Below, piece after piece: positions 647 to 55,048 of a stretch of DNA of 64,000 nucleotides. The DNA lies in the NCBI GenBank assembly GCA_023447635.1, contig JAEXNA010000221.1, positions 4,063 to 68,062 on the forward strand, written 5' to 3'. The notes under the pieces were generated by a model, which ran no database searches, was not told the DNA's origin, and saw nothing but the letters and a program-made list of their open reading frames with translations. Each line of letters starts with the position of its first letter. The first letter of the stretch is position 1. Origin of the DNA: Vulcanimicrobiota bacterium (lineage in GTDB: Bacteria > Vulcanimicrobiota > Xenobia > Xenobiales > JADMJV01). The position numbers and the translations under genes are program-made.

Positions 647-1798
647 TTAGCCTCTTTTCTGACTCGTCGGGGTCGGGGTTGTGGTTGGGGCTAGCAGATT
701 CTCCTCCAGGTAGGGCGAGTCGATTTTCGCCTTGCTCAGAATCCGGTGCATCACCTTGGCCCGCTCCGCCTCGACCAGGATGTTGTCGATGGCCGGCTGG
801 ACATCGTCGAACGACGCCTTCCGCTCCGCGATCTGATAAATCGCGAACCCGCCCGCGTTGGTCAGCGGCGGAGTGATCTGCCCCACCTCTAGTTGGGACA
901 GCGCCTCGGCCGTGGCCGGCCCGAACTGCTCGCGAATATCGCCCAGAGTCAGCGAACCCAGAGCCGACACCATCCCGCCGTCTTGGGAGAACTTCTTGCC
1001 CGCCTCAGCCGGGTTCACCCCGTTGCGCAGGGCGGCCACGAAGCCGTCGGCCTTGGCCCGGCTCTCGAAGCGCATGCCGCGCAGGGTGTAGATCGTCAGG
1101 TCCTTCTTGAAGGTCTCGAACACCTCGGTCTTGCGCGCCTTGTCCGTCTCCTTGCCGATGATCTGGCGCAGCAGAATCTCCGCCTCGGCCTCGGGCAGAT
1201 GAATGGCCCCTTGGGGATCGTTCTTGAACCGCTCTTTCAGCTCGATCCGCTCTTCCGGGCTCAGCGACAGCTTCAACCGCTCCGCCTCCTGACGGATCGC
1301 CTCCTGCTCGGTCAAACGCTGCAGCACGGCCGGACCGTGGGCCATCTCCAGCGACTGGATATAGAGCCCCATCGGGATCCGGCGCCCGTTGACCACCACC
1401 GCGGGCTCGTTGCCGCCCAGCGCCGGCCCACGCCCCCGTTTGGGACGGTAGGTCTCGCGGAACAGGAAGGCGGCAAACACCGCCATCAGCGCCAGGAAAA
1501 ACAGCGCGATGATCCAGCCCTGCTTCTTCTGCAGCCAGGCCAGCCATCCGTAGCGCTCGCGACGCCGGGCCCACTCGCGGGCGCTTTGCTCGGACCGCTT
1601 GTGGTTCCAGATCTGGAACCGCTGGTAGGCCAGTTTCAGCTTCGACTCGCCCGAAGCGGCCCGCTGGGCGCGCCGACGCTCGCCCGACAGCGTGCGCCGC
1701 TGCTCCCTGGCCAGCGCCCGACGAAGCCGGGCGTCCTGATACGATCTGGTAAACTGCAGGCGCTGCCGGCGCCACCACTGTGAAAACCCCATACCCAA
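647..1798 (-). CDS. membrane-anchored periplasmic chaperone / peptidyl-prolyl isomerase, SurA-N-like (EpsD-family-like of exosortase loci)
   Basis: 383 aa. Arg-rich N-terminus, one TM (WIIALFFLALMAVFAAFLF), then a SurA_N-like helical domain and a degenerate parvulin-like C-terminus. Same strand and operon as the exosortase. Confidence 0.45.
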   Translation of the reverse strand: MGMGFSQWWRRQRLQFTRSYQDARLRRALAREQRRTLSGERRRAQRAASGESKLKLAYQRFQIWNHKRSEQSAREWARRRERYGWLAWLQKKQGWIIALFFLALMAVFAAFLFRETYRPKRGRGPALGGNEPAVVVNGRRIPMGLYIQSLEMAHGPAVLQRLTEQEAIRQEAERLKLSLSPEERIELKERFKNDPQGAIHLPEAEAEILLRQIIGKETDKARKTEVFETFKKDLTIYTLRGMRFESRAKADGFVAALRNGVNPAEAGKKFSQDGGMVSALGSLTLGDIREQFGPATAEALSQLEVGQITPPLTNAGGFAIYQIAERKASFDDVQPAIDNILVEAERAKVMHRILSKAKIDSPYLEENLLAPTTTPTPTSQKRG

Positions 1799-1825
1799 TC
1801 CTAAATGCGATTTCGCCTGCTAGCC

Positions 1826-2356
1826 TTATCGGCCGTCAGGCAGCACTCGATAGTCTTGTTCTATTAAGCGGCACGACACTTGCCGCCAGCCTCGCTCGGT
1901 CCAGCGCCACCGGTCCTTGGAGCGAGTCGTCAGCTTCACCCTCTGAAGCTGCGTCTTTTGCACGTTGCTGAAAATCTCGGCCTCGATGGTGTCGACCACC
2001 TCGCACTCTGCCTCGTCCTCGGACAGCAGGCGAAAGTTACCGATCACGCCGCTCTCCCGAAGCGAGACCGCTTTGGCCAAAAAGTCGGCCAGCCATGTCT
2101 TTTCGTCGATCGGGTTCATCGGATAGCCGTCCAGGTCGTAGGCTTTGAAATCAGCCGACCGGTAGGCCATCATCCCCGCGCGATACTTCAGCGCAGCCGC
2201 CTTGTAGGTGCTGGCGTAAGCCGCCTCGATCTCGGCGCGCGGCACGGCCAGCGCTGGGGCCCAGAGGGCCAATAGTAAGAGAGTGGAGAGTGAGAGACGG
2301 AATATCGTCATAAGTGTCTCGATAAAGCAAAGATAGAAAGAGAAGGCCGCGGACAA
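1826..2356 (-). CDS. hypothetical secreted protein (signal peptide; start probably at internal Met ~2311)
   Basis: ORF with MTIFRLSLSTLLLLALWAPALA signal-like N-terminus; no recognisable catalytic motif. Confidence 0.35.
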   Translation of the reverse strand: MSAAFSFYLCFIETLMTIFRLSLSTLLLLALWAPALAVPRAEIEAAYASTYKAAALKYRAGMMAYRSADFKAYDLDGYPMNPIDEKTWLADFLAKAVSLRESGVIGNFRLLSEDEAECEVVDTIEAEIFSNVQKTQLQRVKLTTRSKDRWRWTERGWRQVSCRLIEQDYRVLPDGR

Positions 2357-2393
2357 GCCGGGCCTTCTCTCTCGTCAGTCCGAAGCAAAGGAG

Positions 2394-3227
2394 TTAGCCG
2401 ATAACGGCCGACTCCTTGCGTCCGCGACGGTCGGAAACCACGAAGAACAGCAGCATCGCGATAGCGATCGGCAGCCCCGCGGAAGCGGTGTCGATTTCGG
2501 GGACGAGTTGAACGTTGGTGACTGCGAATCCCCCATAGGTGCTATTCGTACCAACCACACCGTAGCCGAATCCAATGATCCAATTGCCAGCGGTGACGCC
2601 GGTCAATGTGTAGCTTGTTCCAGCAAGTCGGCCTGCAGCGGTGGCCGCACTACCCAACACCCGGTTCACACGGGAGTCCGGCCGCTGTGCAGTACCCAGA
2701 GCCAAACCCGAGTCTCCGTTCATCAGAGTAGGGCTTAGCTCGCTGTTCGCTTGACCACCACGAATAAGTGTACCCGTGTAATCGTCAGTATTGAACAGGA
2801 ACACGAAAGGGTCCCCAGTCTGTCCGTTTGAGTTCACGAACCCAACAGCATCGAAAACAATGCTACCGTTAGCTGAGGTCGTGAAGGCTTGATAGATCCC
2901 GGTGAGCTTCGCGTCGCTCATTGCGTTTCCAAAATTGGACGCAACTGCACCAATCGAAGTCGAGTTGAATACAACTTGGTTAAAGAAGCTCTGAGAGCTT
3001 GCACCCGCAGTCCCTCCGCGACCAACGACTAGCCCGTAGGTGTCGCCCCCAAGGATGTTCGAGTTGGTCTGTCCGAAAGCTACTGAAGCGCCTCCAGCAA
3101 CTCCCGCCGTCGACCAAGCCGACCCGTTCGAGAAATTTGAATTTTGGATAGCCGGAGCAGCAATTGCACCTTGGATCATGACCAAGGCTGCAAAAAGCGC
3201 GCCAACTATCCGACTTTTGACCTGCAA
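2394..3227 (-). CDS. VPEID-CTERM (PEP-CTERM variant) sorting-signal surface protein
   Basis: Signal peptide (IVGALFAALVMIQGAIA), Gly/Ser/Thr/Asn-rich body. C-terminus ...LVPEIDTASAGLPIAIAMLLFFVVSDRRGRK = VPEID motif + TM helix + Arg-rich tail, the tripartite exosortase sorting signal. Confidence 0.7.
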   Translation of the reverse strand: MQVKSRIVGALFAALVMIQGAIAAPAIQNSNFSNGSAWSTAGVAGGASVAFGQTNSNILGGDTYGLVVGRGGTAGASSQSFFNQVVFNSTSIGAVASNFGNAMSDAKLTGIYQAFTTSANGSIVFDAVGFVNSNGQTGDPFVFLFNTDDYTGTLIRGGQANSELSPTLMNGDSGLALGTAQRPDSRVNRVLGSAATAAGRLAGTSYTLTGVTAGNWIIGFGYGVVGTNSTYGGFAVTNVQLVPEIDTASAGLPIAIAMLLFFVVSDRRGRKESAVIG

Positions 3228-3351
3228 ATCGATTCCTCCCTAAATAATAGAGCACGCAAGATATCTCTCACGCACCGGCGCTGTTGACTACATAAGGGGA
3301 ACATCCTCTACAGAAAGGACCGATTGCGGAAATTCTGTCCAGGTGGCCGTT

Positions 3352-4914
3352 CTACACCCAAAGGTCCCAGCGCTGGAACACCACCACGTGCACCGCCACG
3401 CAAAGGTTGGCCACCGCATGCGCCACCACCGCGTCGCTCAGCCGGTTGCGGAACGTTCCTGCGTAGGCAAAGGCCACCCCCGCCACCAACCCCGCGAACC
3501 AGGCCTGATGCAGCAACCCGAAGGCCAGAGAGCTGACCGCCACGGCCTTGAGCGGCAGCGAGTCGAACCGCACCGCCGTAAAGTCCTCCGCCTGCAACCG
3601 GCGCAGCAGATAGCCGCGGAAGGCCAACTCCTCGACCACCGGCACCAGAAACACCGAACCGATCAGGCGGGCGAGTAGCCATATCGCCGCGATATTCTCC
3701 GGTAAGTGGTGCCTGGGATCGTCCGCCTCGCCCACCGGGACTAGCCCAATCCACAGAACGTAGACCAGCACCCCTAGCGGTAAGGTACGAAAGTCCGGCG
3801 CGCTCCACAGCCCAAGCCTGGCGTACCGCCTGGCAAACCCCAGCAGCAGCCCCGCCACCAGCAGGCTCCGCACCGGGTACAGCACGTCCACCTCGGACAC
3901 GAACGCCGCGAACAGCAGGGTCAAGAATAGCTGCAGCGCCAGCGGCGCCAGGAACGGCAGCGAGGGAAACTCGTGGGCCTGTCCGCGAGAGCGATGGAAC
4001 AGCTTGAACTTTTCGACCACCGCCAGAAAGCCGAAGCCCAGGAAGACGAAGGCGATCCAGCCGCCCCGCGAGTGAAACGCCTCCAGCGCGACCTCGGGAG
4101 AAACGTAGGCGCCAAGTAGCAGTAAGCAGGCCAGCCGCACCCCGTTCCCCACATAGCTCAGACCCGCTGCCAGCGGCAGCATCACCAGAGCTCCGGGAAA
4201 ACGTAGCTCCCGACGACGCACGACCATATAGATAGTCAAAAAGACCAGAATCAGCCCGATCCCCTCGAATCCGGAACAGTGGTAGCCCACCTGCACGACG
4301 AAGGACGATAGGCCCATGGTGCCTTTGGTCGCGTCCACCTGGGGATGAAAACCCAGGACCCCAAGAACTCCCGTGCAGATCTTGATCGACCCGTTGATCA
4401 GGGCGTCCGAGGTCAGCGGACTTCGACCTCGCTCGGCGGCAAGGATCAGCAGATACACCAGCATCCCGTACCCGCCGTAACGCCGGGCCAGCGGCCACCA
4501 GATGCCGGGCGGCAGCAAACAGCTCAGCCAGCTGAGCCCAAAGGCGCCCCCCAGCAGGGTCAGGGCGCCCAGCCCCAGCGCGACCGACTCGGTCAGGCAG
4601 AGGAGAAGTAATCCGCGAAAGCTCAGCGCTAGCACTCCTGCCGACAGAACGTGCAGCGCCAGCGCCCGCCCAAAGCCGGGCCGGGGCGGCAGCGTCGGCA
4701 GGCGGCGCCACACGGCGTAGGCCGCCACGCCCGTGGTGACCGCCAGCAGCGCCAGCTTTAGCAGCGGCAGCTTGATGGTACGGTAGACTAGCCAGCGCCC
4801 CTCGATAGAAAGCTCGCTGATCAGGCCCAACTCTAAAGCGAGCAGCAGAAAGCAGCCCGCCCAGCGCAGCCAGGCGCGGCGTTGGTCCGGATCAGGGGCA
4901 AAGAGGCGGGACAT
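3352..4914 (-). CDS. xrtE: exosortase fused to CPBP/CAAX-type intramembrane protease (exosortase E/XrtE-like)
   Basis: Start taken at ATG 4914 (MSRLFAPDP...). The 130-aa N-terminal extension in the ORF track overlaps the divergent phosphatase gene. Polytopic protein with exosortase-like Cys motif (VQVGYHCSGFEG) followed by CPBP motifs EELAFRGYL, FGLLHQ, HAVANL. Adjacent to a VPEID-CTERM gene. Confidence 0.7.
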   Translation of the reverse strand: MSRLFAPDPDQRRAWLRWAGCFLLLALELGLISELSIEGRWLVYRTIKLPLLKLALLAVTTGVAAYAVWRRLPTLPPRPGFGRALALHVLSAGVLALSFRGLLLLCLTESVALGLGALTLLGGAFGLSWLSCLLPPGIWWPLARRYGGYGMLVYLLILAAERGRSPLTSDALINGSIKICTGVLGVLGFHPQVDATKGTMGLSSFVVQVGYHCSGFEGIGLILVFLTIYMVVRRRELRFPGALVMLPLAAGLSYVGNGVRLACLLLLGAYVSPEVALEAFHSRGGWIAFVFLGFGFLAVVEKFKLFHRSRGQAHEFPSLPFLAPLALQLFLTLLFAAFVSEVDVLYPVRSLLVAGLLLGFARRYARLGLWSAPDFRTLPLGVLVYVLWIGLVPVGEADDPRHHLPENIAAIWLLARLIGSVFLVPVVEELAFRGYLLRRLQAEDFTAVRFDSLPLKAVAVSSLAFGLLHQAWFAGLVAGVAFAYAGTFRNRLSDAVVAHAVANLCVAVHVVVFQRWDLWV

Positions 4915-4971: not shown

Positions 4972-5469
4972 GTGCCGGTGGGCAAGTCCGTCCTGGCAGG
5001 TGTTCCCCGGGCCAACGCTAAGCCGCCCGCCATGCCTCGCTTTTTCCCAGCGCTGCAGGTCTCGCTCGAGCTGTTTCGCGGGCCCCAGCCCGATTTTGAA
5101 GACATGCTGCACCTGAAATCCCACGGGGTCCGGGCGCTGGTCAACCTTCGCCGCGAAGCCACCGAAAGCGAATTCTTCGCCCGCCAGGCCGGGCTGGAAT
5201 ATCTGCACCTGGCGGTGGAAGACTGGAATATTCCGCAGGAAGGCCAGATCCGCGAATTTTTGCAGTTCCTGAATATTCCGCAGAATCGACCCGCCCTGAT
5301 CCATTGCGCCATGGGCGTAGGCAGAACCGGAACCTTCGTCGCCTGTTACAGAGTGGCCAAAGGTATGACCGCCGACGACGCCATCCGCATGACCAACGAC
5401 GAATCGCCCCTGCGCGGCGTGACCATGAACCGACTCCAGCAGGACTTCGTCCGCAGCTTCCGGCCCTGA
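4972..5469 (+). CDS. protein tyrosine / dual-specificity phosphatase (CX5R)
   Basis: HCAMGVGRTG P-loop (CX5R) signature. GTG start at 4972 per the ORF track; ATG at 5032 (MPRFFPAL) is an alternative start. Confidence 0.7.
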   Translation: MPVGKSVLAGVPRANAKPPAMPRFFPALQVSLELFRGPQPDFEDMLHLKSHGVRALVNLRREATESEFFARQAGLEYLHLAVEDWNIPQEGQIREFLQFLNIPQNRPALIHCAMGVGRTGTFVACYRVAKGMTADDAIRMTNDESPLRGVTMNRLQQDFVRSFRP

Positions 5470-5516: not shown

Positions 5517-7925
5517 TTGTCTTCTCTCAATCGACCCCGCTTCTGGCTCCACCACATCGGCCTGCTGGCCCCGCTGCTCTGCCTGGCCGGGACGGTCGCC
5601 GTCTACTCCACCGCCCTGAACCCCGGCCTCCCGCTGCTCCTGGCCAACGCGCTGGCCGCCCTATTCTGCGCCTGGCGGCTGCTCTCGTCCCGCCGTCCGT
5701 TCTACCATCCCGGGCTCGATATTTTGCTGGCCCTGGCCCTCTGGGCCGCCCTCTCGGCCACCACCGCGCTCGACCCTTATCTGGCCCAGCGCAGCCTGGC
5801 TACCGGGGTCGGCGGCTGCGGGCTGACCCTGGGCCTGGTGGTCGCCATCCGCTCTTCCAGGGACTGGAAGCTCGCCGCCTACGGGCTGGTCGGCTTCACC
5901 GCCCTGGCCTCGATAGCCGCCTGGCCCGCCGCCTTCGCCGTGGCGCGCCAGACCGGCCACCTGCCCGCCCTGACCGGCACCTACAACAACCCCGACGCTT
6001 TCTCCATCCTGCCCCTGAGCGGCTTCTGCCTCGGTTTCGGCCTGCTGGCCCGGCGACGCGGCGCCGGGACCGGTCTGATGCTGGCCCTGCTCGGGGTGCT
6101 GGCCCTGTCGCTGGCCGCCACCGGATGCCGCTCTGCCCTGCTGGGCGCAACGCTGGGACTGGGCCTCTCCTTCGCGCTTATGGCGACCCACCGCAGCCGC
6201 CGTCTCGCCAAGGCCCGCCCTCTGATGATGGCGCTGCCGATCGTGGTCGTGATGGCGCTGCTGCCGCTCTCGAACTTTGGCCTCTCCGGCCTGGACAAAA
6301 TCTCCCGCACCTTCAACGACGCCGCCTTGCGCAACGAAGCGACCCGCCTGGAAGTGGCCTACTACGGATGGCGCGCGGTAGCCCAGCACGCCGTGCTGGG
6401 CGCCGGACCCGGCTGCTTCGGCCTGGCCTATCAAACCGTCCGTCCCGACCCTCACCCCGACGACTACATCAATCTGGCCCACAACGACCATATCGAAATG
6501 GCGGTCGAACTGGGCTTCCCCGGTCTGCTGCTATGGGCAGCCGCGCTGGCCGCCGCTGCCCACAAAGCTTACGACGGGCTCCTGCACGGACGCCGCCCCG
6601 CCGAAGCTGCCGGCCTGCTGGCCGCCCTGGCCGCGCTGATCGTCTTCGCCTTCTTCAACTTCATCGTGAGCGAGCGCCCCTCGTTCTGGGTCCAGTGCTA
6701 CCTTCTGGGGTTGGCCTACGCCTTCCCCAGCGAGCGCTCGGCCCGCCCCGAACCCAAGCTCGCCCGCCTGCTCTTGACCTTGCCGCTGCTCGCCCTGGCG
6801 CTCTGGGGGGTCACCTTCGCAGCCCGCCTCCTGCAGGCCGACAGCTACGCCGCCACGGCGCGCGGGCAGGCCGAAGGGCTGCTCTTCGAAAGCTCCGCCG
6901 GCGCCTGGGACCAGGCTATCGCCCTGCAGCCCGAGCGCGCCGCCTTCCGCCAGTCGCGCGCCGAAGTCGCCCGCAAACTGGCCACCCTGGGCGTTTATAG
7001 CGAGGCGCCGGTGGTCGAACGCCAACTCCGCTCCGCCCTGCTGGCCAGCCCCGCCAACACCGGGGTGATGGTGCAGCTGGCCCTCTGGTTAGCCCAGAGG
7101 GGGGAAACCAAAGAGGCCAAAGCGCTCCTCGACCAGGCCTCGCGCCTGGCGCCCGGCAGCCCCATGCTGAAACGCCGACGTCAGGAGCTAGCGGTCGGCC
7201 AGGGCCGCTGGGCCGAAGCCGCCGCCCAGGCCTGGGCGGCCTACAAGACCACGGGCCAGGGCCTCACCTCTCTGGCCGAACTGGTCATCGCCGCCGAACT
7301 TGCCAACCCCGGCGCGGGCTGTGCCTTGCTTCGAGAGTGGACCCGAACCCCCAACGAGCGGTCGAGCCTTCTCTGGCAAGAGCTGTTCCGGCAGACCGAG
7401 ACCCGAAAACTTGGCGCCCCCCGGCTGAGTTTTGCCCTGCTCAGGGTCGAACTGTCCCCTACCGATCTGTGCGCCAAGCTGGCTCTGGCCCAGGCAGCGG
7501 CCCAAGGCCCGGGCGGGGTCGAGCAGCAGTTTCAGATCCTGGGCAAAGCGCTGGCCGAAGCCTCCCTGACCACGGACCGCTCGCCCTGCCTGGAACCCGC
7601 GCTCCTGCTTTGGACCAGCCGGGCCGTCGATCGGGGGCAAGTGGCCGCCGCCCAAGAGCGGCTGGGCGGGATTCTGCAGGACCAGCCCCGGCTCCACCGG
7701 GTCCGTCTGCGCCTGGCCGACCTGCTGGCGGTCCAGGGTCAACGCGCCGAAGCCACCGCCCTGCTCAAAGACGGCCTGAGCTTCGACAACAGCTCCGTCG
7801 ATCTGCACCTGGGGCTCGCCCGCCTTTACCGCGCCGGCGGCTCGGCCGACCTGGCCCGAGCCTACGCCAGGGATGCCCTACGCCTGGACCCTACCAGTCA
7901 GGAAGCCAAATCGCTGCTTAAATAG
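5517..7925 (+). CDS. O-antigen ligase (Wzy_C)-like polytopic membrane protein with C-terminal TPR repeats
   Basis: YINLAHNDHIEMAVELGFPGLLLW O-antigen-ligase signature, >=10 TM helices, then ~350 aa TPR-like C-terminus. The 5304 start in the track overlaps the phosphatase gene; TTG at 5517 (in frame) proposed. Confidence 0.6.
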   Translation: MSSLNRPRFWLHHIGLLAPLLCLAGTVAVYSTALNPGLPLLLANALAALFCAWRLLSSRRPFYHPGLDILLALALWAALSATTALDPYLAQRSLATGVGGCGLTLGLVVAIRSSRDWKLAAYGLVGFTALASIAAWPAAFAVARQTGHLPALTGTYNNPDAFSILPLSGFCLGFGLLARRRGAGTGLMLALLGVLALSLAATGCRSALLGATLGLGLSFALMATHRSRRLAKARPLMMALPIVVVMALLPLSNFGLSGLDKISRTFNDAALRNEATRLEVAYYGWRAVAQHAVLGAGPGCFGLAYQTVRPDPHPDDYINLAHNDHIEMAVELGFPGLLLWAAALAAAAHKAYDGLLHGRRPAEAAGLLAALAALIVFAFFNFIVSERPSFWVQCYLLGLAYAFPSERSARPEPKLARLLLTLPLLALALWGVTFAARLLQADSYAATARGQAEGLLFESSAGAWDQAIALQPERAAFRQSRAEVARKLATLGVYSEAPVVERQLRSALLASPANTGVMVQLALWLAQRGETKEAKALLDQASRLAPGSPMLKRRRQELAVGQGRWAEAAAQAWAAYKTTGQGLTSLAELVIAAELANPGAGCALLREWTRTPNERSSLLWQELFRQTETRKLGAPRLSFALLRVELSPTDLCAKLALAQAAAQGPGGVEQQFQILGKALAEASLTTDRSPCLEPALLLWTSRAVDRGQVAAAQERLGGILQDQPRLHRVRLRLADLLAVQGQRAEATALLKDGLSFDNSSVDLHLGLARLYRAGGSADLARAYARDALRLDPTSQEAKSLLK

Positions 7926-10780: not shown

Positions 10781-11230
10781 CTAGGTGTCCTGGCTCCAAG
10801 AATAACTGGAAAGAATCTGAAAGGTATGTTGCTCCGCTTCCCCCGTCACGAACATCTCGCCCACCCTCAGCCAGGCGTGGGCCTCCAACCCTTCCTCGCT
10901 AGGATGGCGACGGACGCCCAGCGACAAGGTATGCGGCACGCCCTCCCGCTTCAGCAACGAGGCGGCCGCCAGGGCGCGATTCAGGCAGTTGGCGTTCCAG
11001 GGCACCCGGTCCGCCAACCCGTTCACCACCCTGGCGACCCGCTGCACCGCGACCGGATCGCTCGCGTCCGGCGCCGCCGGACCGCCCAGAACTCCCAGCC
11101 GACCGGACCAAAACCGGAACGGTAAGCTCAGCACCACAGCCCGCCACACCGCCAGCAGCAGCAGCGCCCGCAGCGCCATCGCTCGCTCGGGTCGGGGCAA
11201 AGCCCAAAATCTCTTCAAGGAACTCCCCAT
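10781..11230 (-). CDS. lasso-peptide B2-like transglutaminase-fold cysteine protease (cassette 1)
   Basis: NCLNRALAAASLLKREGVPHTLSLGVRR...EAHAWLRVGEMFVTGE: Cys...His(AHAW) pattern of lasso B2 / transglutaminase-like proteins. Start at ATG 11230 (MGSSLKRF) rather than 11299. Confidence 0.55.
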   Translation of the reverse strand: MGSSLKRFWALPRPERAMALRALLLLAVWRAVVLSLPFRFWSGRLGVLGGPAAPDASDPVAVQRVARVVNGLADRVPWNANCLNRALAAASLLKREGVPHTLSLGVRRHPSEEGLEAHAWLRVGEMFVTGEAEQHTFQILSSYSWSQDT

Positions 11231-12384
11231 TGAACCACCTTCTTCCCCAGGCGACGCCGGCCGACACCGCCACCGAGAACCTTCTCGCCGTACTGTCACG
11301 CCACGCCCCTGACCGCTCGTTCTCGTCCGCCGATTGGCGGGGGATAGAGCAGGCGGCTCGGCGCTATCGGGTAGCCGGGCTCACCCTCGAGCGGCTTCGC
11401 CGGCACGGCCTATCGGCCCCGGCCGAAATCGACGCCGCCCTGCGCGACGAAGGCCGCGCCCTGGCTGCTCGGGCCGCGGGCAACTGGTGGCTATTCGACG
11501 GGATAGCTGCCGCGCTCACCGCGGCGGACATCCCCTTCATCCGCCTCAAGGGGTCCCACCTGGCTCGCTGCGTCTACGAAAGCCCCAGCCACCGCTTCCA
11601 GCGCGATTTCGATATTCTGGTGCACAAAAAACATCTGAACCAAGCTCAGAGCCAGATCGAGGCCTTAGGGTTCTATCGCAGTCAGGATTTCGAAGGCTAC
11701 AACCTGACCTTCAAACGAGACGGCGTGCCTTTCAGCCTAGAGCTCCATTGGGACGTCCAGCGTCGGCCCTGGCTGTTCGACATAAAGGTCTCCGACCTGT
11801 GGCAACGAGCCGAGCCGGCTCCGGATGGCCAGGGACTGCGCCTTTCCCTGGAGGATGAGATCGCCTACCTTTGCCTGCACCTGTCCAAACATCGCTTTTG
11901 GAACGAAGTCATTCCGATGCTAGATATTTTAGAGCGGCTCCACGTCCAGGGAGAAAGAGTCTGCTACTCCTCTCTCAAGCGTCGGTTCGAAGATTGGCAC
12001 GCACGGAAACCCGCCGCGCTGGTCCTCTCGGTGCTCACGAAGCTTTTCCCTCGAGATACTCCGACCGAGCTTTCCCGGCTGCTCCCGCATCCTCCGTCGG
12101 CTCTCACGAACTACGCCTGCTGGCGTGTCAGCGCCCCGGACGATAGAAACTTAGAAGACCGCAAGCGCATGGTCCGAATCGCGACCTATCGCAAGCATCA
12201 GCGCCTTTGGTCCTCACTCCTGGACAGCGAACCAGGGAAGCCTCGGCGCTCTCGAGGAGAGAAAGTGGCACTGTTATTCGGCAAACTTGGGCGCCTGGGC
12301 CGCTCATTGACCCTGGCAGTTACCGGCGGCCGCCTCGAACGGACGCGCCTGTCGCTGGAAAAGGAGCTCTGCGAATGGTGCTAG
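11230..12384 (+). CDS. uncharacterised nucleotidyltransferase family protein (NTP_transf_5-like) of HprK-related cassettes
   Basis: TTG start in track. FDILVHKKHL (DxD-like) and a paralogue at 26961..28127 with GDLDLWL. Stop overlaps the kinase gene start by 10 nt. Confidence 0.5.
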   Translation: MNHLLPQATPADTATENLLAVLSRHAPDRSFSSADWRGIEQAARRYRVAGLTLERLRRHGLSAPAEIDAALRDEGRALAARAAGNWWLFDGIAAALTAADIPFIRLKGSHLARCVYESPSHRFQRDFDILVHKKHLNQAQSQIEALGFYRSQDFEGYNLTFKRDGVPFSLELHWDVQRRPWLFDIKVSDLWQRAEPAPDGQGLRLSLEDEIAYLCLHLSKHRFWNEVIPMLDILERLHVQGERVCYSSLKRRFEDWHARKPAALVLSVLTKLFPRDTPTELSRLLPHPPSALTNYACWRVSAPDDRNLEDRKRMVRIATYRKHQRLWSSLLDSEPGKPRRSRGEKVALLFGKLGRLGRSLTLAVTGGRLERTRLSLEKELCEWC

Positions 12385-13316
12385 TCACGCGTTCCACCTA
12401 TCGCGCCTTCGGGCGGAATATCTCCAGCGACCTCGACCTCCCCGAACTTCAGCCCTCCGAGGCGTCCCGGGCCTCGACCGACCTCACCATCAGCCTGGCC
12501 TCGCTCGGCGCCCCCGGGCCCCAGGCGGGCGAACCGGGGCTGCTTTACCCCTGCGGCCCCGACGCCTATCGCCTGGACGTGGCCGATGTCGGCAGCTACC
12601 TGATTCGGCAGAGCGGCCGGGAGATTCTGGTCGATCCGCTGCCCGGGGCAGCACCCGAAGTCGTCCGTATCTTTTTGCTCGGCTCGGCGCTGGGCACAGC
12701 GCTGCATCTTTCCGAAGGTCTGGCGCTGCACGCCAGCGCGGTCGAAATCGACGGTCGGGCCGTCCTTTTTGTGGGCGACTGCGGCGCCGGCAAATCGACC
12801 ACCGCCGCCGCCTTCGTCCAGCGCGGCTACCGAATGGTGGCCGACGACGTGGCCTATCTCACCCTCGAGTCGGGCCGCCCTCTGGTCCACCAGGGTGTGA
12901 AACGGATCAAGCTCTGGCAGACCTCGGTCGACGCCCTGGACCTGGAAGGGGCCGACCTGACGGGCGTGCACCCCGACTACCCTCAGCGTCGCTCGCTGGC
13001 CGTGGCCGACCGCCAGACCAGCGCGGTCCTGCTCGGCGCCGTCGTCGTCCTGACGCCCGGCCCGGAGAGGTCGGTTCGCCTCGAAAGGCTGCACGGATTA
13101 GCCGCGCTGTCGGCCCTGGTGCAGAACACCTATCGCCCCTCCTTTGTCGCCACCCTGGGGCAAGGCGCCGCCCATATGGCCAAGGTGGCCACCATGGCCC
13201 AGGGCCTGGCCGTCTACCGACTTCACCGCCCGGACCAGACCATGTCCATCGACCCCGTCGTCCAGGCCACCATCACCCAATTCAGACACAGCCCAGAAAA
13301 GCGAGGAACCCGATGA
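12375..13316 (+). CDS. HPr kinase/phosphorylase-related P-loop kinase (HprK-like RiPP kinase), cassette 1
   Basis: ATG 12375 preceded by AAGGAG. P-loop HASAVEIDGRAVLFVGDCGAGKSTTAAAF, typical of HprK C-terminal-domain homologues. Confidence 0.65.
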   Translation: MVLVTRSTYRAFGRNISSDLDLPELQPSEASRASTDLTISLASLGAPGPQAGEPGLLYPCGPDAYRLDVADVGSYLIRQSGREILVDPLPGAAPEVVRIFLLGSALGTALHLSEGLALHASAVEIDGRAVLFVGDCGAGKSTTAAAFVQRGYRMVADDVAYLTLESGRPLVHQGVKRIKLWQTSVDALDLEGADLTGVHPDYPQRRSLAVADRQTSAVLLGAVVVLTPGPERSVRLERLHGLAALSALVQNTYRPSFVATLGQGAAHMAKVATMAQGLAVYRLHRPDQTMSIDPVVQATITQFRHSPEKRGTR

Positions 13317-13591
13317 ACGCCACTGCCAACACCTTGACCTTGACCCGAACCGAAGTCCCCCGCTGCGACCTGGACGGCGAAACCGTCCTGTTCAGCCCGC
13401 TCGACGGCTCCTACTTCGGCCTCAACGCCGTCAGTTCGCGCATCTGGGACCTGCTGGAAACCCCCACCACCCTGACCGCCATCTGCGCAGCCCTGGGCAA
13501 AGAGTTCGATGTCGACCCCACCGTCTGCGAAGAACAGACCGTTGCCTTCCTCAGCCGCCTCGAAGCCGCCGGTCTTCTGCGCCGCGCCTAG
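13313..13591 (+). CDS. PqqD-family peptide chaperone (RiPP recognition element / lasso B1-like), cassette 1
   Basis: 92 aa; ...GETVLFSPLDGSYFGLNAVSSRIWDLLETPTTLTAICAAL...AFLSRLEAAGLL matches the PqqD/RRE pattern; start overlaps kinase stop (ATGA). Confidence 0.6.
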   Translation: MNATANTLTLTRTEVPRCDLDGETVLFSPLDGSYFGLNAVSSRIWDLLETPTTLTAICAALGKEFDVDPTVCEEQTVAFLSRLEAAGLLRRA

Positions 13592-26109: not shown

Positions 26110-26961
26110 ATGAGTCTCGTCTCCGTCCTCATACCTTGCTACGGCCACCAGTCCACCCTGCCGCGGGCGCTGTTCTCGTTGGTCTTGCAAGACTTTGCCC
26201 AGTGGGAAGCCATTGTGGTCGACGACGGGTCCGAGCCCCCTATCGATCGGGAACGGCTCCCCTCCGACCCCCGAATCCGCCTGCTACGTCTGCCCACCAA
26301 TCAAGGGCGGGGCAAAGCCAGTCAGGTCGCTCTGCAAGCCTCGGTGGGGCGCTACGTAGCCTTTCTCGACGCCGACGACTGGTATCTGCCGGACAAACTT
26401 TCTCGGCAGGTGGCCTTTCTGGATTCCAACCCCGACGTCGACTGCGTTGCCGGAACCCTCGGCTGTGTCTCCCGAGACGGCGGGGACCTTCGCGAAATGC
26501 TCGGCCCCCGCCCCGGGATCCATCACCACACTCCGACCGGGTCCATCAGGCTTCCCTTCGCCGCCTGCCTGGTCCGCGGAAAAAGAGCTCGACAGGTGGG
26601 ATTCGACCCCGCCTTCCGGCGGGGCCAGGACCGCGACTTCCTTCACCGCCTGCTGGTCGGTCGCTCTTACGCCGTCGTACCCGGGATAGAATATGTCTAT
26701 CACACCGGGGTCAGCTTTGCCCTCAGTTCCGTCCAGGAAGGGCTGCGTTATCGACTGCAGTTTTATCGGCGCCACCTGCGGAACAACCCGGGCTGGGCCT
26801 TGCTCCAGATCGGGGCCACCGTGGCTCGGCTGGTCCTCTATCCTATCTTCCATCGGCTCGGACGGTGGCAAGGTCACGTCGAAAGAAACCTTCGCCCCGC
26901 GCCTACCGAGGTCCAACAGCAATACCGGGCAGCCCTGGCGGCCCTAGAGCGGCACTTGTGA
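26110..26961 (+). CDS. glycosyltransferase family 2
   Basis: VSVLIPCYG...VDDGS...FLDADD DxD-type GT-A motifs. Confidence 0.75.
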   Translation: MSLVSVLIPCYGHQSTLPRALFSLVLQDFAQWEAIVVDDGSEPPIDRERLPSDPRIRLLRLPTNQGRGKASQVALQASVGRYVAFLDADDWYLPDKLSRQVAFLDSNPDVDCVAGTLGCVSRDGGDLREMLGPRPGIHHHTPTGSIRLPFAACLVRGKRARQVGFDPAFRRGQDRDFLHRLLVGRSYAVVPGIEYVYHTGVSFALSSVQEGLRYRLQFYRRHLRNNPGWALLQIGATVARLVLYPIFHRLGRWQGHVERNLRPAPTEVQQQYRAALAALERHL

Positions 26962-28127
26962 TGCAGCCCGACCTGCCCTCCCTCGAGCGCCCCATCCTGG
27001 AACTCACCGGCCTGGAAGAAGACTCTCTTCACCTTCCCGAAGCCGTTTCCCAGCAAGGGTTGCTGCTACTCTGGTTACAAGGCACAGGCTTCCCGAGCTG
27101 GCCACTGCCGGCAGGGGCCCGCCAAGCAGCCCTGCTCCAACTGGCCACCTCAATGAAGCTTCAGCGGACCCTCGAGGACGTGGCCAATGTCTTGAACAGC
27201 TCCGCTATTCCGTTCTTGTGCTATAAGGGCCCGGCGCTTTCCCAGGCTGCCTACGGGTCGGCCCACCTGCGCCCCTCGGGCGACCTCGACCTGTGGCTTG
27301 ATCGTCGCGATATAGCGAGGGCTATCGGGGCGCTCGAAAGGCTGGACTTTTGGCCTCGTCGTCCTCATCCGCCCCTCGAGGTCCATCTGCGCTTCGCTTA
27401 TGAGTACGCTTTGGAACAGGCGGAAACCGGCGTCGTGCTCGAGCTTCACTGGCAAGTTCTGCCTCATCGCTACGGCGGCTCTGCGTCCTACTCCGCGGCT
27501 CTGGCCCGCGCCCACACCGTGCAACTCGAAGGCCAGCTCCTTCCCACCCTGTCGCTCGAGGACTCCCTCGTCATTCTGGCTGCTCACGGGGCGAAACATC
27601 TTTGGTACCGCCTGCTCTGGCTCTACGACCTGGCCGGTCTCCTCCAGGGGGCAAAGCCGGACTGGTCCCTGGTAGCCCAAATCGCCCGGAGAAGTGGGAA
27701 CCACACCCGGGTCAGCGTGGCACTTCTTCTGCTGCAGCGTATCTTCGAAAAGCCCCTTCCCCTAGAATGGCGAGTGAGCTGGAAGGCTCGGCGGCTAGCG
27801 GCTCTTCTTCTGCGGCTCAGATTTCTGCCCCAGAGTCAGCTCCTCGCTTATCTCATCTTGCTCGGGCTCGAAGACGGAATAGGGGGAAGCCTGCGCTCGC
27901 TCCTTAGCCTGGCGCTGCATCCCAGTATCGCTGACATCAGCTATCCTCAGCGACCTCTGCGGCCCCACGCTCTCTACTATGCCACTCGCCCCTGGCGATA
28001 TCTGATGTCGCGGCTAAAACGCCGTCCCGAAGGGTCAGAACCTGGTCGACCCGCTCCAGCCAGCCCGCCTGATGGCTCACCACCAGAACGATCATCTGAC
28101 CGCGGTACGCCTCCAACGCCTGCATGA
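26961..28127 (+). CDS. uncharacterised nucleotidyltransferase family protein (paralogue of 11230..12384), cassette 2
   Basis: ATG 26961 overlaps GT2 stop (TGATG). GDLDLWLDRRD motif. The C-terminal ~60 aa are low-complexity and overlap the convergent ABC gene. Confidence 0.5.
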   Translation: MQPDLPSLERPILELTGLEEDSLHLPEAVSQQGLLLLWLQGTGFPSWPLPAGARQAALLQLATSMKLQRTLEDVANVLNSSAIPFLCYKGPALSQAAYGSAHLRPSGDLDLWLDRRDIARAIGALERLDFWPRRPHPPLEVHLRFAYEYALEQAETGVVLELHWQVLPHRYGGSASYSAALARAHTVQLEGQLLPTLSLEDSLVILAAHGAKHLWYRLLWLYDLAGLLQGAKPDWSLVAQIARRSGNHTRVSVALLLLQRIFEKPLPLEWRVSWKARRLAALLLRLRFLPQSQLLAYLILLGLEDGIGGSLRSLLSLALHPSIADISYPQRPLRPHALYYATRPWRYLMSRLKRRPEGSEPGRPAPASPPDGSPPERSSDRGTPPTPA

Positions 28128-29679
28128 CCAGGCGCTCCGAAGCCAGGTCCAGGTTCGCGGTAGGCTCATCGAGCACCAGAAGGCGCGGCTTCCTCAGGAG
28201 CGCTCGAACCAGTCCCAGTCGCTGACGCTCGCCGATGGAAAAATCCTGACCGGCGTCCAACAGAACCGTATCCAGGCCTTCAGGCATCGCTCGGCATCGC
28301 TCTTCGAGCCCCAGCAGCCTCAGCTGGCGCCAGGCCTCCTCATCATCCCGATCTCCCTGATAGCCCAGCCACAGATTATTCCGTAGCGAGGTGCCGAATA
28401 AGAAAGCTTGCTGGGGCACGTAGGCTAGCGATCGACGCCACTCCTTACCTTTCGGAAAGACCTGCTCTCCCATCACGACCCGTCCGGAATCCGGCGAGAG
28501 TAGGCCCAGTAAGATATCTGTCAGCGTCGACTTCCCCGATCCCGACGGTCCGCTCAGGCAGCTCCAGCTGCCGCTAGGTAGCTGGAAGGCGACTCGGGAC
28601 AAGCCGCGTCCGCTGGGATAGCGAAAGTCGACGTCCTGGACTAGCACTCCATCCCCGTCCCCCCAGGAGATATGAAGCGGGGGCCCTTCCTGAACTTGAT
28701 GGCCCTCGAGCTCCCGGAGAAGCCGCTCGACTTTCAGCACAGCGGGCGCCAGGAAGAAAAGTTGGGTCAGCAGCGACGCCAACGACTGCGCTGCCGGGGT
28801 CAACCTGGCCATGGCATAAAGCAGCACCAGAAGCTCGGCGGCCGGCATATGGCGCACCGTTACCGCCCACCAGACGAATCCGGCCAGGACCAGCAGCGAA
28901 GCCACCCGGGTCCAGGCGCTCTGGCCGGCCTCGTCCCTGGCAACCTCGATAGCAACCTGCCGGCGCCGGTCGGTCAGGCGGCACAACTCGGCCAGGTAAA
29001 CCTCTTCAGCGCCGCAGCTCCGAAACGATTTGTAGCCGACCAGAAAGTTCGCCAGCTGGTGCGCCTGCTCCTGATAGACGGTGTCGAACTCCTCTCCCTG
29101 GTGGGTCGCTCGGGCCAGCCTTCTCATCGTGAGCCGAAGGAGAACGGCTCCGAGGGGCACCAGAACCAGAAAGACCGGTCCCACCAGAACCGAGGCTGTC
29201 ACCAGGTACACCGCAGCAAGAGTGGCTTGGCCCAGGCACGCCAGCAGAACTTGTGCCCCGCCAGACACGCGCTCGATATCGACCTGCATCGCCTGAACCA
29301 GGTCGCTGGAGCGATGCCGCAGCAGCCATTCCCATTGCACGCCCCTTAGCGCTACCGTCAATCGTAGGACCAGCCGGTGAACCGTAGTTTCCCGAAAATC
29401 CACCGCAACCAGGCTCTGATAGCGAACCCACCAGGACTGCAGCAGCCCCAGGAGCAGAAATAAGCCCAGCGCCTGGCCCAAGCCAAGCCCTGCTGCGACC
29501 GGGGGATTCGAAGAAACGCCCGCAGCTTCCAGCAGCGGTAAAAGCAGCGCCACGAACCCCAGGGTCGTGACGAAGCCGCTCAGGGTCAACGCCAGGATGT
29601 GCCACAGGCGGGCTCCATGCAGGGCGAAAAAGAACCGCCAGACCGCGCGTATCGTAGTTCGACCGCTCAAAAGTTCCAA
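27937..29679 (-). CDS. ABC transporter, fused permease/ATP-binding (lasso D / McjD-like exporter)
   Basis: 6-TM N-terminal half; Walker A LSGPSGSGKST, signature LSIGERQRLGLVRAL, Walker B LLVLDEPT. Start set to TTG ~29679/29670, overlapping the B2 stop; the track's 30090 start overlaps B2. Confidence 0.7.
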   Translation of the reverse strand: MELLSGRTTIRAVWRFFFALHGARLWHILALTLSGFVTTLGFVALLLPLLEAAGVSSNPPVAAGLGLGQALGLFLLLGLLQSWWVRYQSLVAVDFRETTVHRLVLRLTVALRGVQWEWLLRHRSSDLVQAMQVDIERVSGGAQVLLACLGQATLAAVYLVTASVLVGPVFLVLVPLGAVLLRLTMRRLARATHQGEEFDTVYQEQAHQLANFLVGYKSFRSCGAEEVYLAELCRLTDRRRQVAIEVARDEAGQSAWTRVASLLVLAGFVWWAVTVRHMPAAELLVLLYAMARLTPAAQSLASLLTQLFFLAPAVLKVERLLRELEGHQVQEGPPLHISWGDGDGVLVQDVDFRYPSGRGLSRVAFQLPSGSWSCLSGPSGSGKSTLTDILLGLLSPDSGRVVMGEQVFPKGKEWRRSLAYVPQQAFLFGTSLRNNLWLGYQGDRDDEEAWRQLRLLGLEERCRAMPEGLDTVLLDAGQDFSIGERQRLGLVRALLRKPRLLVLDEPTANLDLASERLVMQALEAYRGQMIVLVVSHQAGWLERVDQVLTLRDGVLAATSDIARGEWHSRERGAAEVAEDS

Positions 29680-30075
29680 AACGTCAGCTCCTGAAAGGCG
29701 GCCTGCTCCGCCCGACCCACCACCGCCCGACCATGAACCTCCAACCAGGCGTGGGCTCCAAACGCCTCCCCCGCTTTGACACCCAGGACCAAACGACAGG
29801 GGATGGCACGAACGCGCAAGAGCAGCGCGGCGGTCAGGGCCCGTTCCAGACATCGGGGCGACCAGGGGGCCCATCGTCCCGCCCGCTCTGTTGCCCGTCC
29901 AACCCGATCGGCCAGTTGCAGCAAGGCGGGGCTTAGACCCGTGGCGGCTCTCTCGGGGACCGTCAGGCGACGGACCTGCGACTGCCAGGGCGTGGCTCGG
30001 AACCACAGGCACACACCAAGTCCGACGAGGAACGCCTCGAAGGTCAAAAGTAGGTCCGAAAGAGAGGGCAGCCGA
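29667..30075 (-). CDS. lasso-peptide B2-like transglutaminase-fold protease, cassette 2
   Basis: RCLERALTAALLLRVRAIPCRLVLGVKAGEAFGAHAWLEVHGRAVVG; probable GTG start ~30075 (VSRLPSLSDLLLTFEAF...). Divergent from the cyclase gene. Confidence 0.55.
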
Positions 30076-30161
30076 GACACTTCTCTCCATTTGTCCTTGC
30101 CCGAGACTTCACCCTTCCCTCCGGGCAGGCGTCGGCATAGGGACAGCCCGAATCGGCGCTT

Positions 30162-31871: not shown

Positions 31872-31999
31872 CCGACCCTAACTACAAAAAACCCGTCCTC
31901 AAAGCCTACGGGAGCCTCAAAGAGCAGACTCTGGCCGTACGAAACGGTGTCGGCATCCGCGACAGCTCGAAGGGCAACCCGAACAACAAAACCGGGTAA
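31868..31999 (+). CDS. candidate lasso-peptide precursor (43 aa)
   Basis: MTDPNYKKPVLKAYGSLKEQTLAVRNGVGIRDSSKGNPNNKTG. Leader matches Y-x2-P-x-L-x3-G-x5-T-x exactly (Y6,P9,L11,G15,T21). Strong RBS GAGGGAG 4 nt upstream; start overlaps cyclase stop (ATGA). Confidence 0.45.
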   Translation: MTDPNYKKPVLKAYGSLKEQTLAVRNGVGIRDSSKGNPNNKTG

Positions 32000-32008
32000 A
32001 CCCGCGAC

Positions 32009-32983: not shown

Positions 32984-32996
32984 GGAACAGCACTGC

Positions 32997-52318: not shown

Positions 52319-52461
52319 ATCCAGCTAAAATCCCCCGCGATAATGCCAATGTCCTGCAAATCGCGGTGCGGTCCAGGGGCTGCGAAAATAACCATCCTCA
52401 GCCCACCGTCAGATGCGACCAACCAGGAGAGCGCCACGAAGACGCTAACCACCTCGCGACC

Positions 52462-53358: not shown

Positions 53359-54129
53359 GTGGGGGTATGCATGGCATTACGATCTTTTCTTTTGACTTTT
53401 CTCCTGGGTGTGTCCGCGCTGGCGGCGCCTCTTTCCAACGGGAATTTTGAGCAAGGCAACCTGTCTGGCTGGCAATCAGTGGGAAGGACTGTTGTCGCAT
53501 TTTCAACGGCGGTCTCTAATCCGGGTCTATACTCGGCCGTGCTCTCGACGGACGAAACGATGGGTAACGTACAGGGCGTAGACTTCGACGACATCGAGAC
53601 GGCCCTGGGCCTGACGCCAGGAACCGTCCTAAGCCTGGGCGGCTACAATGCGACGTTCGGGTCAGCGATCTACCGGTCGGTGACCGTCTTGGCCGGCGAG
53701 GCCATCACGTTCGATTCTAGATTTGTGTCGGACGAGCCGGATGGCCCTACAACGCCATATAATGACTTCTCCTTCTTCAGCGTTTCCGGAGGCGGGGCCC
53801 CTGCTCATGTGCAGTTCCTCGGTGACGCCCAGGCGGCATCTTCGATCAACGGGCCAGCATTCCACGGATTTGATCGCAGTACCAACTCTGCCAACGCCTC
53901 CTACACCTTCGCCAACAGCGGGACGTACACGATCGGGTTTGGAGTCTCGAACGTAGAGGACAACTCCGTCGGCTCGGCCCTCGTGGTGGACAACATCGCG
54001 CTCAACGTCCAAAACCCGCAATCCGTGCCCGAGATCGACGCGAGCAGCGCGACGCTGCCTCTCGCGCTCATCTGCTTGATGATGCTTGTCGTTTCCGACC
54101 GCAAGCACAGGGCGACTCGTCTGGCCTAG
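53359..54129 (+). CDS. VPEID-CTERM sorting-signal surface protein (paralogue of 2394..3227)
   Basis: Signal peptide (MALRSFLLTFLLGVSALA); N-terminal NGNFEQGNLSGWQ motif shared with 2394..3227; C-terminus SVPEIDASSATLPLALICLMMLVVSDRKHR. Confidence 0.7.
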   Translation: MGVCMALRSFLLTFLLGVSALAAPLSNGNFEQGNLSGWQSVGRTVVAFSTAVSNPGLYSAVLSTDETMGNVQGVDFDDIETALGLTPGTVLSLGGYNATFGSAIYRSVTVLAGEAITFDSRFVSDEPDGPTTPYNDFSFFSVSGGGAPAHVQFLGDAQAASSINGPAFHGFDRSTNSANASYTFANSGTYTIGFGVSNVEDNSVGSALVVDNIALNVQNPQSVPEIDASSATLPLALICLMMLVVSDRKHRATRLA

Positions 54130-54774: not shown

Positions 54775-54819
54775 CTGGCACCGAATCAGGAGACCCTCGT
54801 CACCCGCGCCAACACCAAA

Positions 54820-54980: not shown

Positions 54981-55048
54981 AACCGCAGCCCCGCCGGCCG
55001 TCCCTCAACCGGCAACTAGGCCGGGCTCGCCTCGCCCTCCGATAACAG

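Follow-up and report, generated by a model that had tools for sequence, protein, structure and literature searches.

An exosortase E/protease fusion and two VPEID-tailed secreted proteins within an exopolysaccharide region of a Vulcanimicrobiota bacterium

We analyzed a 64,000-nucleotide stretch of the genome of a Vulcanimicrobiota bacterium (assembly GCA_023447635.1, contig JAEXNA010000221.1, positions 4,063 to 68,062; hereafter the window) that contains a gene, xrtE, whose product combines an exosortase with a glutamic intramembrane protease of the CPBP/CAAX type, and two genes, for substrates A and C, whose products end in VPEID-type tails. The locus probably encodes a genuine protein-sorting system of the exosortase E (XrtE) type, set inside an exopolysaccharide (EPS) biosynthesis region. 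The sequences show cargo proteins with a Sec signal and, at the C-terminus, a stop-transfer helix, and an enzyme with two complete sets of catalytic residues.

The XrtE enzyme

The xrtE gene (3352..4914, minus strand) encodes a 520-aa polytopic membrane protein. Its exosortase domain comprises residues 1-303 (4006..4914, minus strand), with Cys213 (codon 4276-4278), Arg260 and His281 as the proposed catalytic residues, and its CPBP (Rce1-like) domain comprises residues 319-520 (3352..3960, minus strand), with the motifs EELAFR (428-433; nt 3616-3633), FGLLH (465-469) and HAVAN (499-503). An initial annotation of this DNA had described an exosortase Cys motif fused to a CAAX/CPBP protease, and all the motifs that it quoted were found in the 520-aa open reading frame (ORF): VGYHCSGFEGIGL (Cys213), EELAFRGYL (428-436), FGLLHQ (465-470) and HAVANL (499-504). 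Its further assignment of the enzyme to the XrtE type was borne out, as the xrtE product scored 212.3 bits against the NCBIfam model TIGR04162 (exosortase E/protease, VPEID-CTERM system; cutoff 150), in an alignment spanning model positions 30-515 of 516, and the models of other exosortases all remained below their cutoffs (XrtA, 21.5 bits against 208; XrtV, 21 against 313; XrtX, 17.9 against 170; XrtD, 16.2 against 400). In addition, the protein scored 49 bits against the exosortase/archaeosortase signature TIGR04178 (cutoff 23), its residues 340-519 scored 132.8 bits against TIGR03008 (CAAX prenyl protease-related, PEP-CTERM systems; equivalog cutoff 81), and Pfam recognized the families Exosortase_EpsH and Rce1-like (the latter with 53 bits). 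The enzyme at 3352..4914 is XrtE by every membership test computable from sequence. An identical 520-aa protein with the same start at 4914 is present in public data (P0001). A longer, 650-aa xrtE ORF from an ATG at 5304 was rejected because the extension overlaps a divergent phosphatase gene and because both the homologs and the public gene call begin at the Met at 4914. The idea that the enzyme of the window is a divergent outlier was likewise discarded: 10 XrtE homologs, with Planctomycetota, Myxococcota and Xenobia among their sources, scored 179-230 bits on TIGR04162, a range in which 212 bits is typical.

An alignment of 24 XrtE homologs (A1), mostly 30-40% identical, contained the C-S-G catalytic region that the initial annotation had singled out for inspection. 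C213, N257, R260 and H281 of the exosortase domain were invariant in it, as were E428, E429, R433, F465, H469, H499 and N503 of the CPBP domain. Many bacterial CPBP/Abi proteins have been assigned non-protease roles, which favors seeing the CPBP domain of XrtE as a non-proteolytic module, for example in immunity or as a scaffold, that would only aid stability or substrate docking. We consider this quite improbable, since all four catalytic residues of the motifs are invariant across homologs otherwise only 30-40% identical, as are, within EExxxR, the Arg and the second Glu, and such strict invariance is expected of an active enzyme. The EExxxR, FxxxH and HxxxN motifs have been shown to be catalytic in MmRce1 and MrtX (PMC11980579). 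Scanning a single genome for each GTDB species yielded at least 561 relatives of XrtE in many phyla, and many metagenome proteins already bear the name XrtE in public data; the nearest named relatives belong to metagenome-assembled genomes of Candidatus Xenobia and Vulcanimicrobiota, with 34-39% identity.

The tagged proteins, their tails and their pairing with XrtE

The gene for substrate A (2394..3227, minus strand) begins 124 nt downstream of xrtE on the same strand and encodes a 277-aa secreted protein. The intergenic region (3228..3351, minus strand) holds a strong Shine-Dalgarno sequence, GGGAGGA (3234-3240), ahead of a TTG at 3227 that yields a typical signal peptide (nt 3159-3227, minus strand; MQVKSRIVGALFAALVMIQGAIA followed by AP), and this TTG is likely, from the sequence around it, to be the true start. 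In the public call (P0121, 175 aa, 2394..2921), translation begins at an internal Met, so that the signal peptide is lost, as is the N-terminal third of the domain. A weak sigma-70-like site (9/12 consensus match) extends from 3271 to 3244 on the minus strand, its -35 end running past the intergenic region. Substrate C (53371..54129, plus strand) is a 252-aa secreted protein according to the public call from ATG 53371, or 256 aa from GTG 53359, and its signal peptide is MALRSFLLTFLLGVSALA followed by AP; both signal peptides were judged by inspection rather than with a dedicated predictor. Among cluster representatives, substrate C appears as a 189-aa fragment (P0124).

In line with the initial annotation, substrate A ends in LVPEID, a hydrophobic helix and DRRGRK (V242-G277, nt 2397-2504, minus strand; C-terminus NVQLVPEIDTASAGLPIAIAMLLFFVVSDRRGRKESAVIG), and substrate C ends in SVPEID, a helix and DRKHR (SVPEIDASSATLPLALICLMMLVVSDRKHRATRLA; nt 54025-54126, plus strand). 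The anatomy of both tails is the same: an exact VPEID, a 19-residue hydrophobic stretch and then D-R-R/K. Translated in six frames, the 64 kb contain exactly two copies of the pentapeptide VPEID, and each stands about 30 aa ahead of the stop codon in a signal-peptide-bearing ORF. Two copies in 64 kb, both C-terminal and both accompanied by a signal peptide, a helix and a basic cluster, argue that the tails are not a product of chance. Relaxed scans of the window revealed no further PEP- or VPEID-like C-terminal tail, and neither tail matched TIGR02595 (PEP_CTERM) even at E values up to 10. With no PEP-type tail in the window and the XrtA model failing on the enzyme, the earlier preference for a VPEID-CTERM pairing over a classic PEP-CTERM one is upheld.

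The family models proposed as a check passed on the enzyme, as described above, but not on the sorting domain. The cutoff of TIGR04161 (VPEID-CTERM; 33 bits) was reached neither by tail A (14.5 bits) nor by tail C (19.8 bits as the whole protein, 23.3 bits as the isolated tail). That these scores denote a different signal class was rejected by means of a control with eight XrtE-adjacent tails of other phyla, taken among others from the loci that we number L004, L017, L020, L019, L052 and L007. Two of them passed TIGR04161 (55.8 and 40.5 bits; methanotroph/alphaproteobacterial-type) and six failed, with at most 21 bits or no match, including tails of Planctomycetota, Myxococcota, Acidobacteriota and Pseudooceanicola. 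Since six of eight control tails also fail, the sub-threshold scores point to a narrow model rather than to a foreign signal; the TIGR04161 cutoff under-annotates XrtE-adjacent tails outside its seed lineages. A precomputed Pfam match to PF27847 (VPEID-CTERM) exists for substrate C and is marked as weak.

Position tallies, for which tails were chosen by a pattern demanding PE and then [ILMV][DGSNP], separated two flavors of tail. Canonical XrtE-adjacent tails (n=79) follow [VA]PE[IL]D-[PA]-x-S-[AG]-x-S-A-[LI]-x-L-L-x-G-G-L-L-L-L-x-[ED]-R-R-R and have a Pro at positions 11-13 in 2 of 79 cases. The tails of the cargo family found in the window (n=37) follow V-P-E-I-D-x-x-S-A-x-L-P-[LVI]-A, continue in a hydrophobic stretch without GG and end in D-R-R, with a Pro at position 12 in 94%. 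The register is common to the two flavors: positions 2-3 hold PE, position 5 holds D or N, and positions 25-26 hold an acidic residue and then Arg. An acidic residue stands just ahead of the basic cluster in 32 of the 37 window-family tails and in 35 of 78 canonical ones, compared with none of 40 PEP-CTERM tails on homologous cargo, and the first basic residue lies about four positions farther from the motif in VPEID-type than in PEP-CTERM tails.

Concerning the cargo, the AlphaFold2 (AF2) model of substrate A (predicted local distance difference test score, pLDDT, 81; predicted template modeling score 0.79) is a beta-sandwich with an N-terminal helix at 2-18 and a C-terminal tail helix at 247-265, in which the final strand continues directly into VPEID. 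In Foldseek searches it matched carbohydrate-binding modules (CBMs) of families CBM61, CBM4, CBM16, CBM27 and CBM11 as well as receptor-binding domains of phage tailspikes, with E values down to 6e-6; the Foldseek probability was 1.0 for the CBMs, and TM-scores normalized to the target reached 0.68 (CBM61, 2xon). The predicted fold supports a cargo of roughly 200 aa shaped as a CBM-like beta-sandwich. Membership in a CBM sequence family found no support, as Pfam CBM_4_9 scored 18.4 bits against a cutoff of 25.9, on substrate C only. The layout of the domain is a signal peptide, x-N-G-x-F-E-x-G-x-x-x-G-W, then G-F-G and then D-N-V. Substrate C had been called a paralogue of A that shares its N-terminal NGNF..G..W motif. 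The two are not close paralogues, as BLASTP aligned them over the last 76 aa only (42% identity, E 6e-13). Yet a profile of A orthologs from which signal peptides and tails had been removed matched the cargo of C at both ends, in the NGNF..GW and GFG..DNI regions (16.4 bits, E 3e-7 for a single comparison). Since the tail-less profile reaches the cargo of C, we take A and C to be distant members of one cargo family.

A word-indexed protein search with substrate A returned only its truncated self and one ortholog, and an exhaustive HMM search was needed for more. A, its ortholog and C served as queries for such a profile search, which covered 1.84 billion representative proteins and returned only 103 cargo relatives at E of 1e-3 or lower. 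A regular expression applied to the last 40 residues classified 37 tails as VPEID-like, mostly of the LP flavor, 48 as PEP-like and 19 as other. Relatives bearing VPEID-like and PEP-like tails indicate that one cargo domain is used with either exosortase signal. One Pro-type VPEID cargo, P0127, lies on a 3.4-kb contig with no xrtE visible and is uninformative. The GC content at third codon positions (GC3) is 0.58 in substrate A and 0.59 in a Poly_export gene (51131-52318), versus 0.82-0.86 in xrtE and in the peptidyl-prolyl isomerase and Wzy_C genes described below; the low values could reflect expression level or a separate origin.

The pairing of XrtE with such tails was examined in 80 XrtE loci from GTDB genomes, kept for neighborhood counts out of the relatives mentioned above. 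An ORF with a [VA]PE[IL]D tail, a helix and a basic cluster was present in 60 of the 80 loci and lay within 2.5 kb of xrtE in 59, which makes the pairing a general rule. Within that distance, 58 tail ORFs were upstream on the same strand and 11 were downstream, and they were small (median 96 aa stop-to-stop). In several of them, such as L009 (9322-9495), L071 (11030-11194) and L080 (5774-5950), the signal peptide runs straight into the tail with almost no mature cargo in between. The window departs from most XrtE loci, its tagged gene being downstream and full-size instead of upstream and tiny. No tagged ORF was found near xrtE in a Xenobia locus (L002) and a Vulcanimicrobiota locus (L022), so that adjacency is common and not universal. 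Among close relatives, whose XrtE is 75% (L082), 55% (L083/L084), 54% (L087) and 38% (L088) identical to the enzyme of the window, VPEID-tailed homologs of substrate A stand beside xrtE or within 2.5 kb of it in L082, L083/L084, L087 and L088, with three such homologs in L083; their tails include VPEIDTASAGLPIAI, IPEIDTASAGLPLAL, VPEIDTAAAGLPVAI and VPEIDSGAAALPLAI. These relatives also keep the two genes that follow the cargo gene, for a 176-aa protein and the isomerase; L082 and L083 have them in the order of the window, and in L087 and L088 the genes are rearranged and lie on the opposite strand. Synteny kept in four independent related loci backs the enzyme-substrate pairing, and an association that survives rearrangement is the strongest indication of a functional link in this analysis.

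The same data bear on a different explanation, in which A and C are PEP-CTERM-family proteins of an XrtA/XrtB-like exosortase encoded elsewhere, their adjacency to xrtE is coincidental and the true XrtE substrate is a VPEID mini-protein. It would account for a cargo domain that is common to many classic PEP-CTERM proteins, for the small size and upstream position of the tagged neighbor in most XrtE loci and for tails under the TIGR04161 cutoff. The tails, however, show the exact VPEID, the longer spacer and the acidic-Arg end, with no PEP-CTERM features and no TIGR02595 match; the synteny with xrtE is kept in four more loci despite rearrangement; no small VPEID ORF occurs near xrtE or elsewhere in the window; and the 64 kb contain no second exosortase. 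This explanation therefore appears very unlikely.

Topology, proposed mechanism and points against it

The AF2 model of XrtE (mean pLDDT 85) is all-helical except for a single beta-hairpin before Cys213. Run on the whole model, Foldseek found nothing in the PDB at an E value below 1 and did not recover the Rce1 structure, and a profile search of PDB sequences with XrtE found nothing. We derived the topology by applying the positive-inside rule to the AF2 helices and not with a dedicated predictor. By this reading the Arg/Lys-rich stretches 68-80, 233-240, 303-318, 361-366, 433-439 and 486-491 are cytoplasmic. Cys213 would lie at the periplasmic end of the transmembrane helix 216-232, His281 in a periplasmic loop and the outer part of the Arg260 helix at the periplasmic leaflet. 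Glu428, His499 and Asn503 are predicted within the cytoplasmic half of the membrane, with His469 at the tip of a short helical hairpin that, as in Rce1, enters from the cytoplasmic side. In this model, XrtE would have its two active sites at opposite leaflets.

A mechanism in four steps can be proposed for an XrtE system of this kind. First, as their sequence anatomy suggests, A and C would be exported by Sec via their N-terminal signal peptides, and the C-terminal helix would anchor them in the inner membrane with VPEID at the periplasmic face and D-R-R/K in the cytoplasm. In the second step, by extension from ArtA and the exosortase family, the Cys213/Arg260/His281 site would cleave at VPEID via a thioacyl intermediate; the CBM-like cargo would be freed from its anchor and, following the family, probably passed to an envelope or EPS acceptor. 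The third step is speculative: the CPBP site (Glu428/His469/His499/Asn503) might dock or cut the cytoplasmic end of the tail, where the acidic residue precedes the basic cluster, or, equally speculatively, the CPBP domain might degrade the leftover helix and so let the enzyme turn over. Finally, synteny suggests that the lectin-like cargo may bind or organize the polysaccharide made by the surrounding genes, and that the isomerase and the secreted protein of about 160-176 aa may serve as periplasmic folding or escort factors.

The division of labor between the two domains could also be the reverse, with the CPBP domain as the endopeptidase that removes the tail, as MrtX does for MYXO-CTERM, and the exosortase domain as a transferase/ligase or a substrate-binding scaffold. 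CPBP proteases are proven sorting enzymes for tripartite C-terminal signals (PMC11980579; 10.1101/2023.06.07.544157), the CPBP catalytic residues are all invariant in XrtE, and XrtE gave weak matches to the models MrtJ (33.2 bits), Mrt_core (26.3 bits) and MrtP (23.6 bits). These scores are nevertheless far under the respective cutoffs of 75, 100 and 250 bits, and the Cys, Arg and His of the exosortase domain are equally invariant. Moreover, myxosortase signals need an invariant Cys, presumably lipidated first, which VPEID tails do not have, and the CPBP site would, according to the topology deduced above, be situated at the cytoplasmic leaflet, away from VPEID. We judge such a reversal unlikely.

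Several points weigh against the interpretation of the locus as an XrtE sorting system of the kind outlined here. Both tails are below the trusted cutoff of TIGR04161. Where the enzyme cuts, which acceptor it uses and what the CPBP domain contributes are all inferred, and the active sites were assigned to leaflets by reading an AF2 model according to the positive-inside rule. Substrate C, 48 kb from xrtE, is a putative substrate assigned by its tail alone. Similarity to CBMs is generic among beta-sandwiches, and sugar binding by the cargo is putative. The search for a second exosortase covered 64 kb and not the whole genome. PEP-CTERM systems have a separate CPBP protein of the TIGR03008 family although their tails have no acidic residue, and this weakens the case for recognition of that residue by the CPBP domain. 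Lastly, a full-text literature search for VPEID-CTERM returned no paper, and XrtE and exosortase E turned up only in passing or in unrelated contexts.

More tentatively, and with a good deal of doubt, the clade of the window may represent a distinct XrtE subtype, a module of xrtE, CBM-like cargo with the LP tail (VPEID-xx-SA-x-LP), the 160-176-aa protein and the isomerase, which would install lectin-like proteins in the EPS matrix. In such a subtype, the two ends of the tail, VPEID and acidic-Arg, at a fixed spacing, would be read by the Cys site and the CPBP Glu site at opposite leaflets.

Genomic neighborhood and relation to known systems

The xrtE and substrate A genes open a same-strand run of four genes (647-4914, minus strand), whose products have 520, 277, 176 and 383 aa. 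The third gene (1826..2356, minus strand) encodes a conserved secreted protein, 176 aa as called, which is found with the cargo throughout the clade. An ATG near 2311 would give 161 aa with a clean signal peptide (MTIFRLSLSTLLLLALWAPALA), and the orthologs have 158-162 aa; from these sequences the product is probably the 161-aa form. A GC-rich hairpin at about 2339-2369 directly follows the substrate A stop codon and overlaps the annotated TTG start of this gene. Its orthologs in L082, L083, L087 and L088 are 27-86% identical (alignment A4). Pfam contains no family for the protein, and its PDB profile matches, including DUF4440/AtzH at an E value of about 1, were non-significant. The last gene of the run (647..1798, minus strand) encodes a PpiC-type peptidyl-prolyl isomerase (PPIase) of 383 aa, membrane-anchored or periplasmic, whose N-terminal region resembles SurA (Pfam Rotamase_2, 27.3 bits; Rotamase, 24.0 bits; SurA_N_3, 25.6 bits). 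It is kept beside the cargo and 176-aa genes in the same four relatives.

Divergent from xrtE lies a gene for a dual-specificity/tyrosine phosphatase (4972..5469, plus strand; Pfam PTP-NADK, Tc-R-P and DSPc), with homologs near xrtE in L082, L083 and L087. It is followed by a gene (5517..7925, plus strand) for a Wzy_C (O-antigen ligase/polymerase-like) membrane protein with C-terminal tetratricopeptide repeats (TPRs), identified by a precomputed Pfam match and with homologs in L082 and L083. The 80 GTDB loci, which come from other lineages, had no homolog of the 176-aa protein or the PPIase at a distance of up to about 10 kb from xrtE; for the phosphatase the sole exception was a match of 31 residues in L059, and the Wzy_C-TPR protein had a weak partial match in L014 only (28% over 259 aa). 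The cassette of cargo, 176-aa protein and PPIase is thus clade-specific.

Substrates A and C had been said to bracket the whole EPS, lasso-peptide and glycosylation region, which is only partly right. EPS and lasso-type genes do lie between them, but beyond the window, past the PPIase on the other flank of A, there are further polysaccharide-related genes (Acyl_transf_3 and DUF218). The EPS-type genes between and around A and C encode two Wzy_C-TPR proteins, GT4 and GT2 glycosyltransferases, epimerases/dehydratases, a GFO/IDH/MocA oxidoreductase, a Poly_export/SLBB protein and an SGNH acyltransferase, and their presence fits the general association of exosortases with EPS. Two lasso-peptide-like gene sets are found in the same region. 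One, at about 10781-13591, includes ScmC/HPr-kinase-like (12375-13316), PqqD (13313-13591) and Transglut_core3 (near 10781-10915) genes. The other, at about 26961-33200, includes Asn_synthase (30162-31871), a 43-aa ORF (31868-31999), Transglut_core3 (29667-30047), PqqD, an ABC exporter (27937-29679) and NTP_transf_5. Directly upstream of substrate C, a 258-aa ORF (52366-53142, plus strand; 226 aa in the public call) carries a lipoprotein-like signal (…LSLEGCGDS) and has no family assigned to it, and downstream of C there is a non-coding 62-bp tandem repeat (54815-54987; 2.8 copies, 94% matches). A 12-bp repeat of 4.5 copies (55805-55858) encodes a (QEGR)n run within a 226-aa ORF (55285-55965). 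An Rfam scan of the window found no RNA family. Just beyond the EPS region there is an AbiEi/AbiEii toxin-antitoxin-like pair (58100-59595, minus strand); the related locus L087 is also flanked by toxin-antitoxin genes (PIN/RHH, PemK).

Compared with the catalogued XrtE/VPEID-CTERM system (TIGR04162, TIGR04161, PF27847), the locus shows the same full-length two-domain architecture, the same catalytic residues and a neighboring VPEID-tailed protein. It differs in the Pro-containing tail VPEID-xx-SA-x-LP-x-A, without GG and followed by DRR, in a CBM-like cargo of 250-290 aa encoded downstream instead of a tiny ORF upstream, and in the accessory genes of its clade for the 176-aa protein, the PPIase, the phosphatase and the Wzy_C-TPR protein. 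With the PEP-CTERM/XrtA (EpsH) system it has in common a Cys/Arg/His enzyme, an EPS locus, a tripartite signal abutting a transmembrane helix, a CPBP partner of the TIGR03008 family and a cargo homologous to many PEP-CTERM proteins. In contrast to that system, its CPBP domain is fused rather than separate, its motif is VPEID and not VPEP, its basic residue is about four positions farther with an acidic residue ahead, and the enzyme stays below the XrtA cutoff. ArtA, which acts on PGF-CTERM in Haloferax volcanii, belongs to a homologous enzyme family (TIGR04178) and is the one branch for which experiments support a removal of the C-terminal helix that depends on Cys, Arg and His (10.1101/2023.06.07.544157); it is archaeal, has no CPBP domain, recognizes another motif and leaves a lipid anchor. 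The myxosortases MrtX and MrtJ resemble the CPBP domain in fold, in the EExxxR/H/HxxxN motifs and in acting on tripartite C-terminal signals (PMC11980579), but they are stand-alone enzymes not fused to an exosortase, their signals require the Cys that is absent from VPEID tails, and the enzyme of the window fails the Mrt models.

Both the family and the signal are already catalogued in NCBIfam and Pfam; the earlier recognition of the locus was correct and nothing in it is surprising at the level of kind. What the analysis adds is of moderate specialist interest: the LP-type flavor of tail, a CBM-like cargo in common with PEP-CTERM proteins, a clade-specific cassette and a two-ended tail facing a two-site enzyme. 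On the practical side, the public call for substrate A omits the signal peptide. Exosortase systems are regarded as a link between secreted proteins and both EPS and floc or biofilm formation, and to our knowledge none of the bacterial exosortase subclasses beyond XrtA/XrtB has been studied. This locus is comparatively tractable, with both activities in one enzyme, a folded cargo adjacent to it and likely helpers in an operon-like run, and the two conserved ends of the tail point to specific mutants. If the tail is indeed read at two sites, the long-unexplained CPBP partner of exosortases would have a concrete and testable job.

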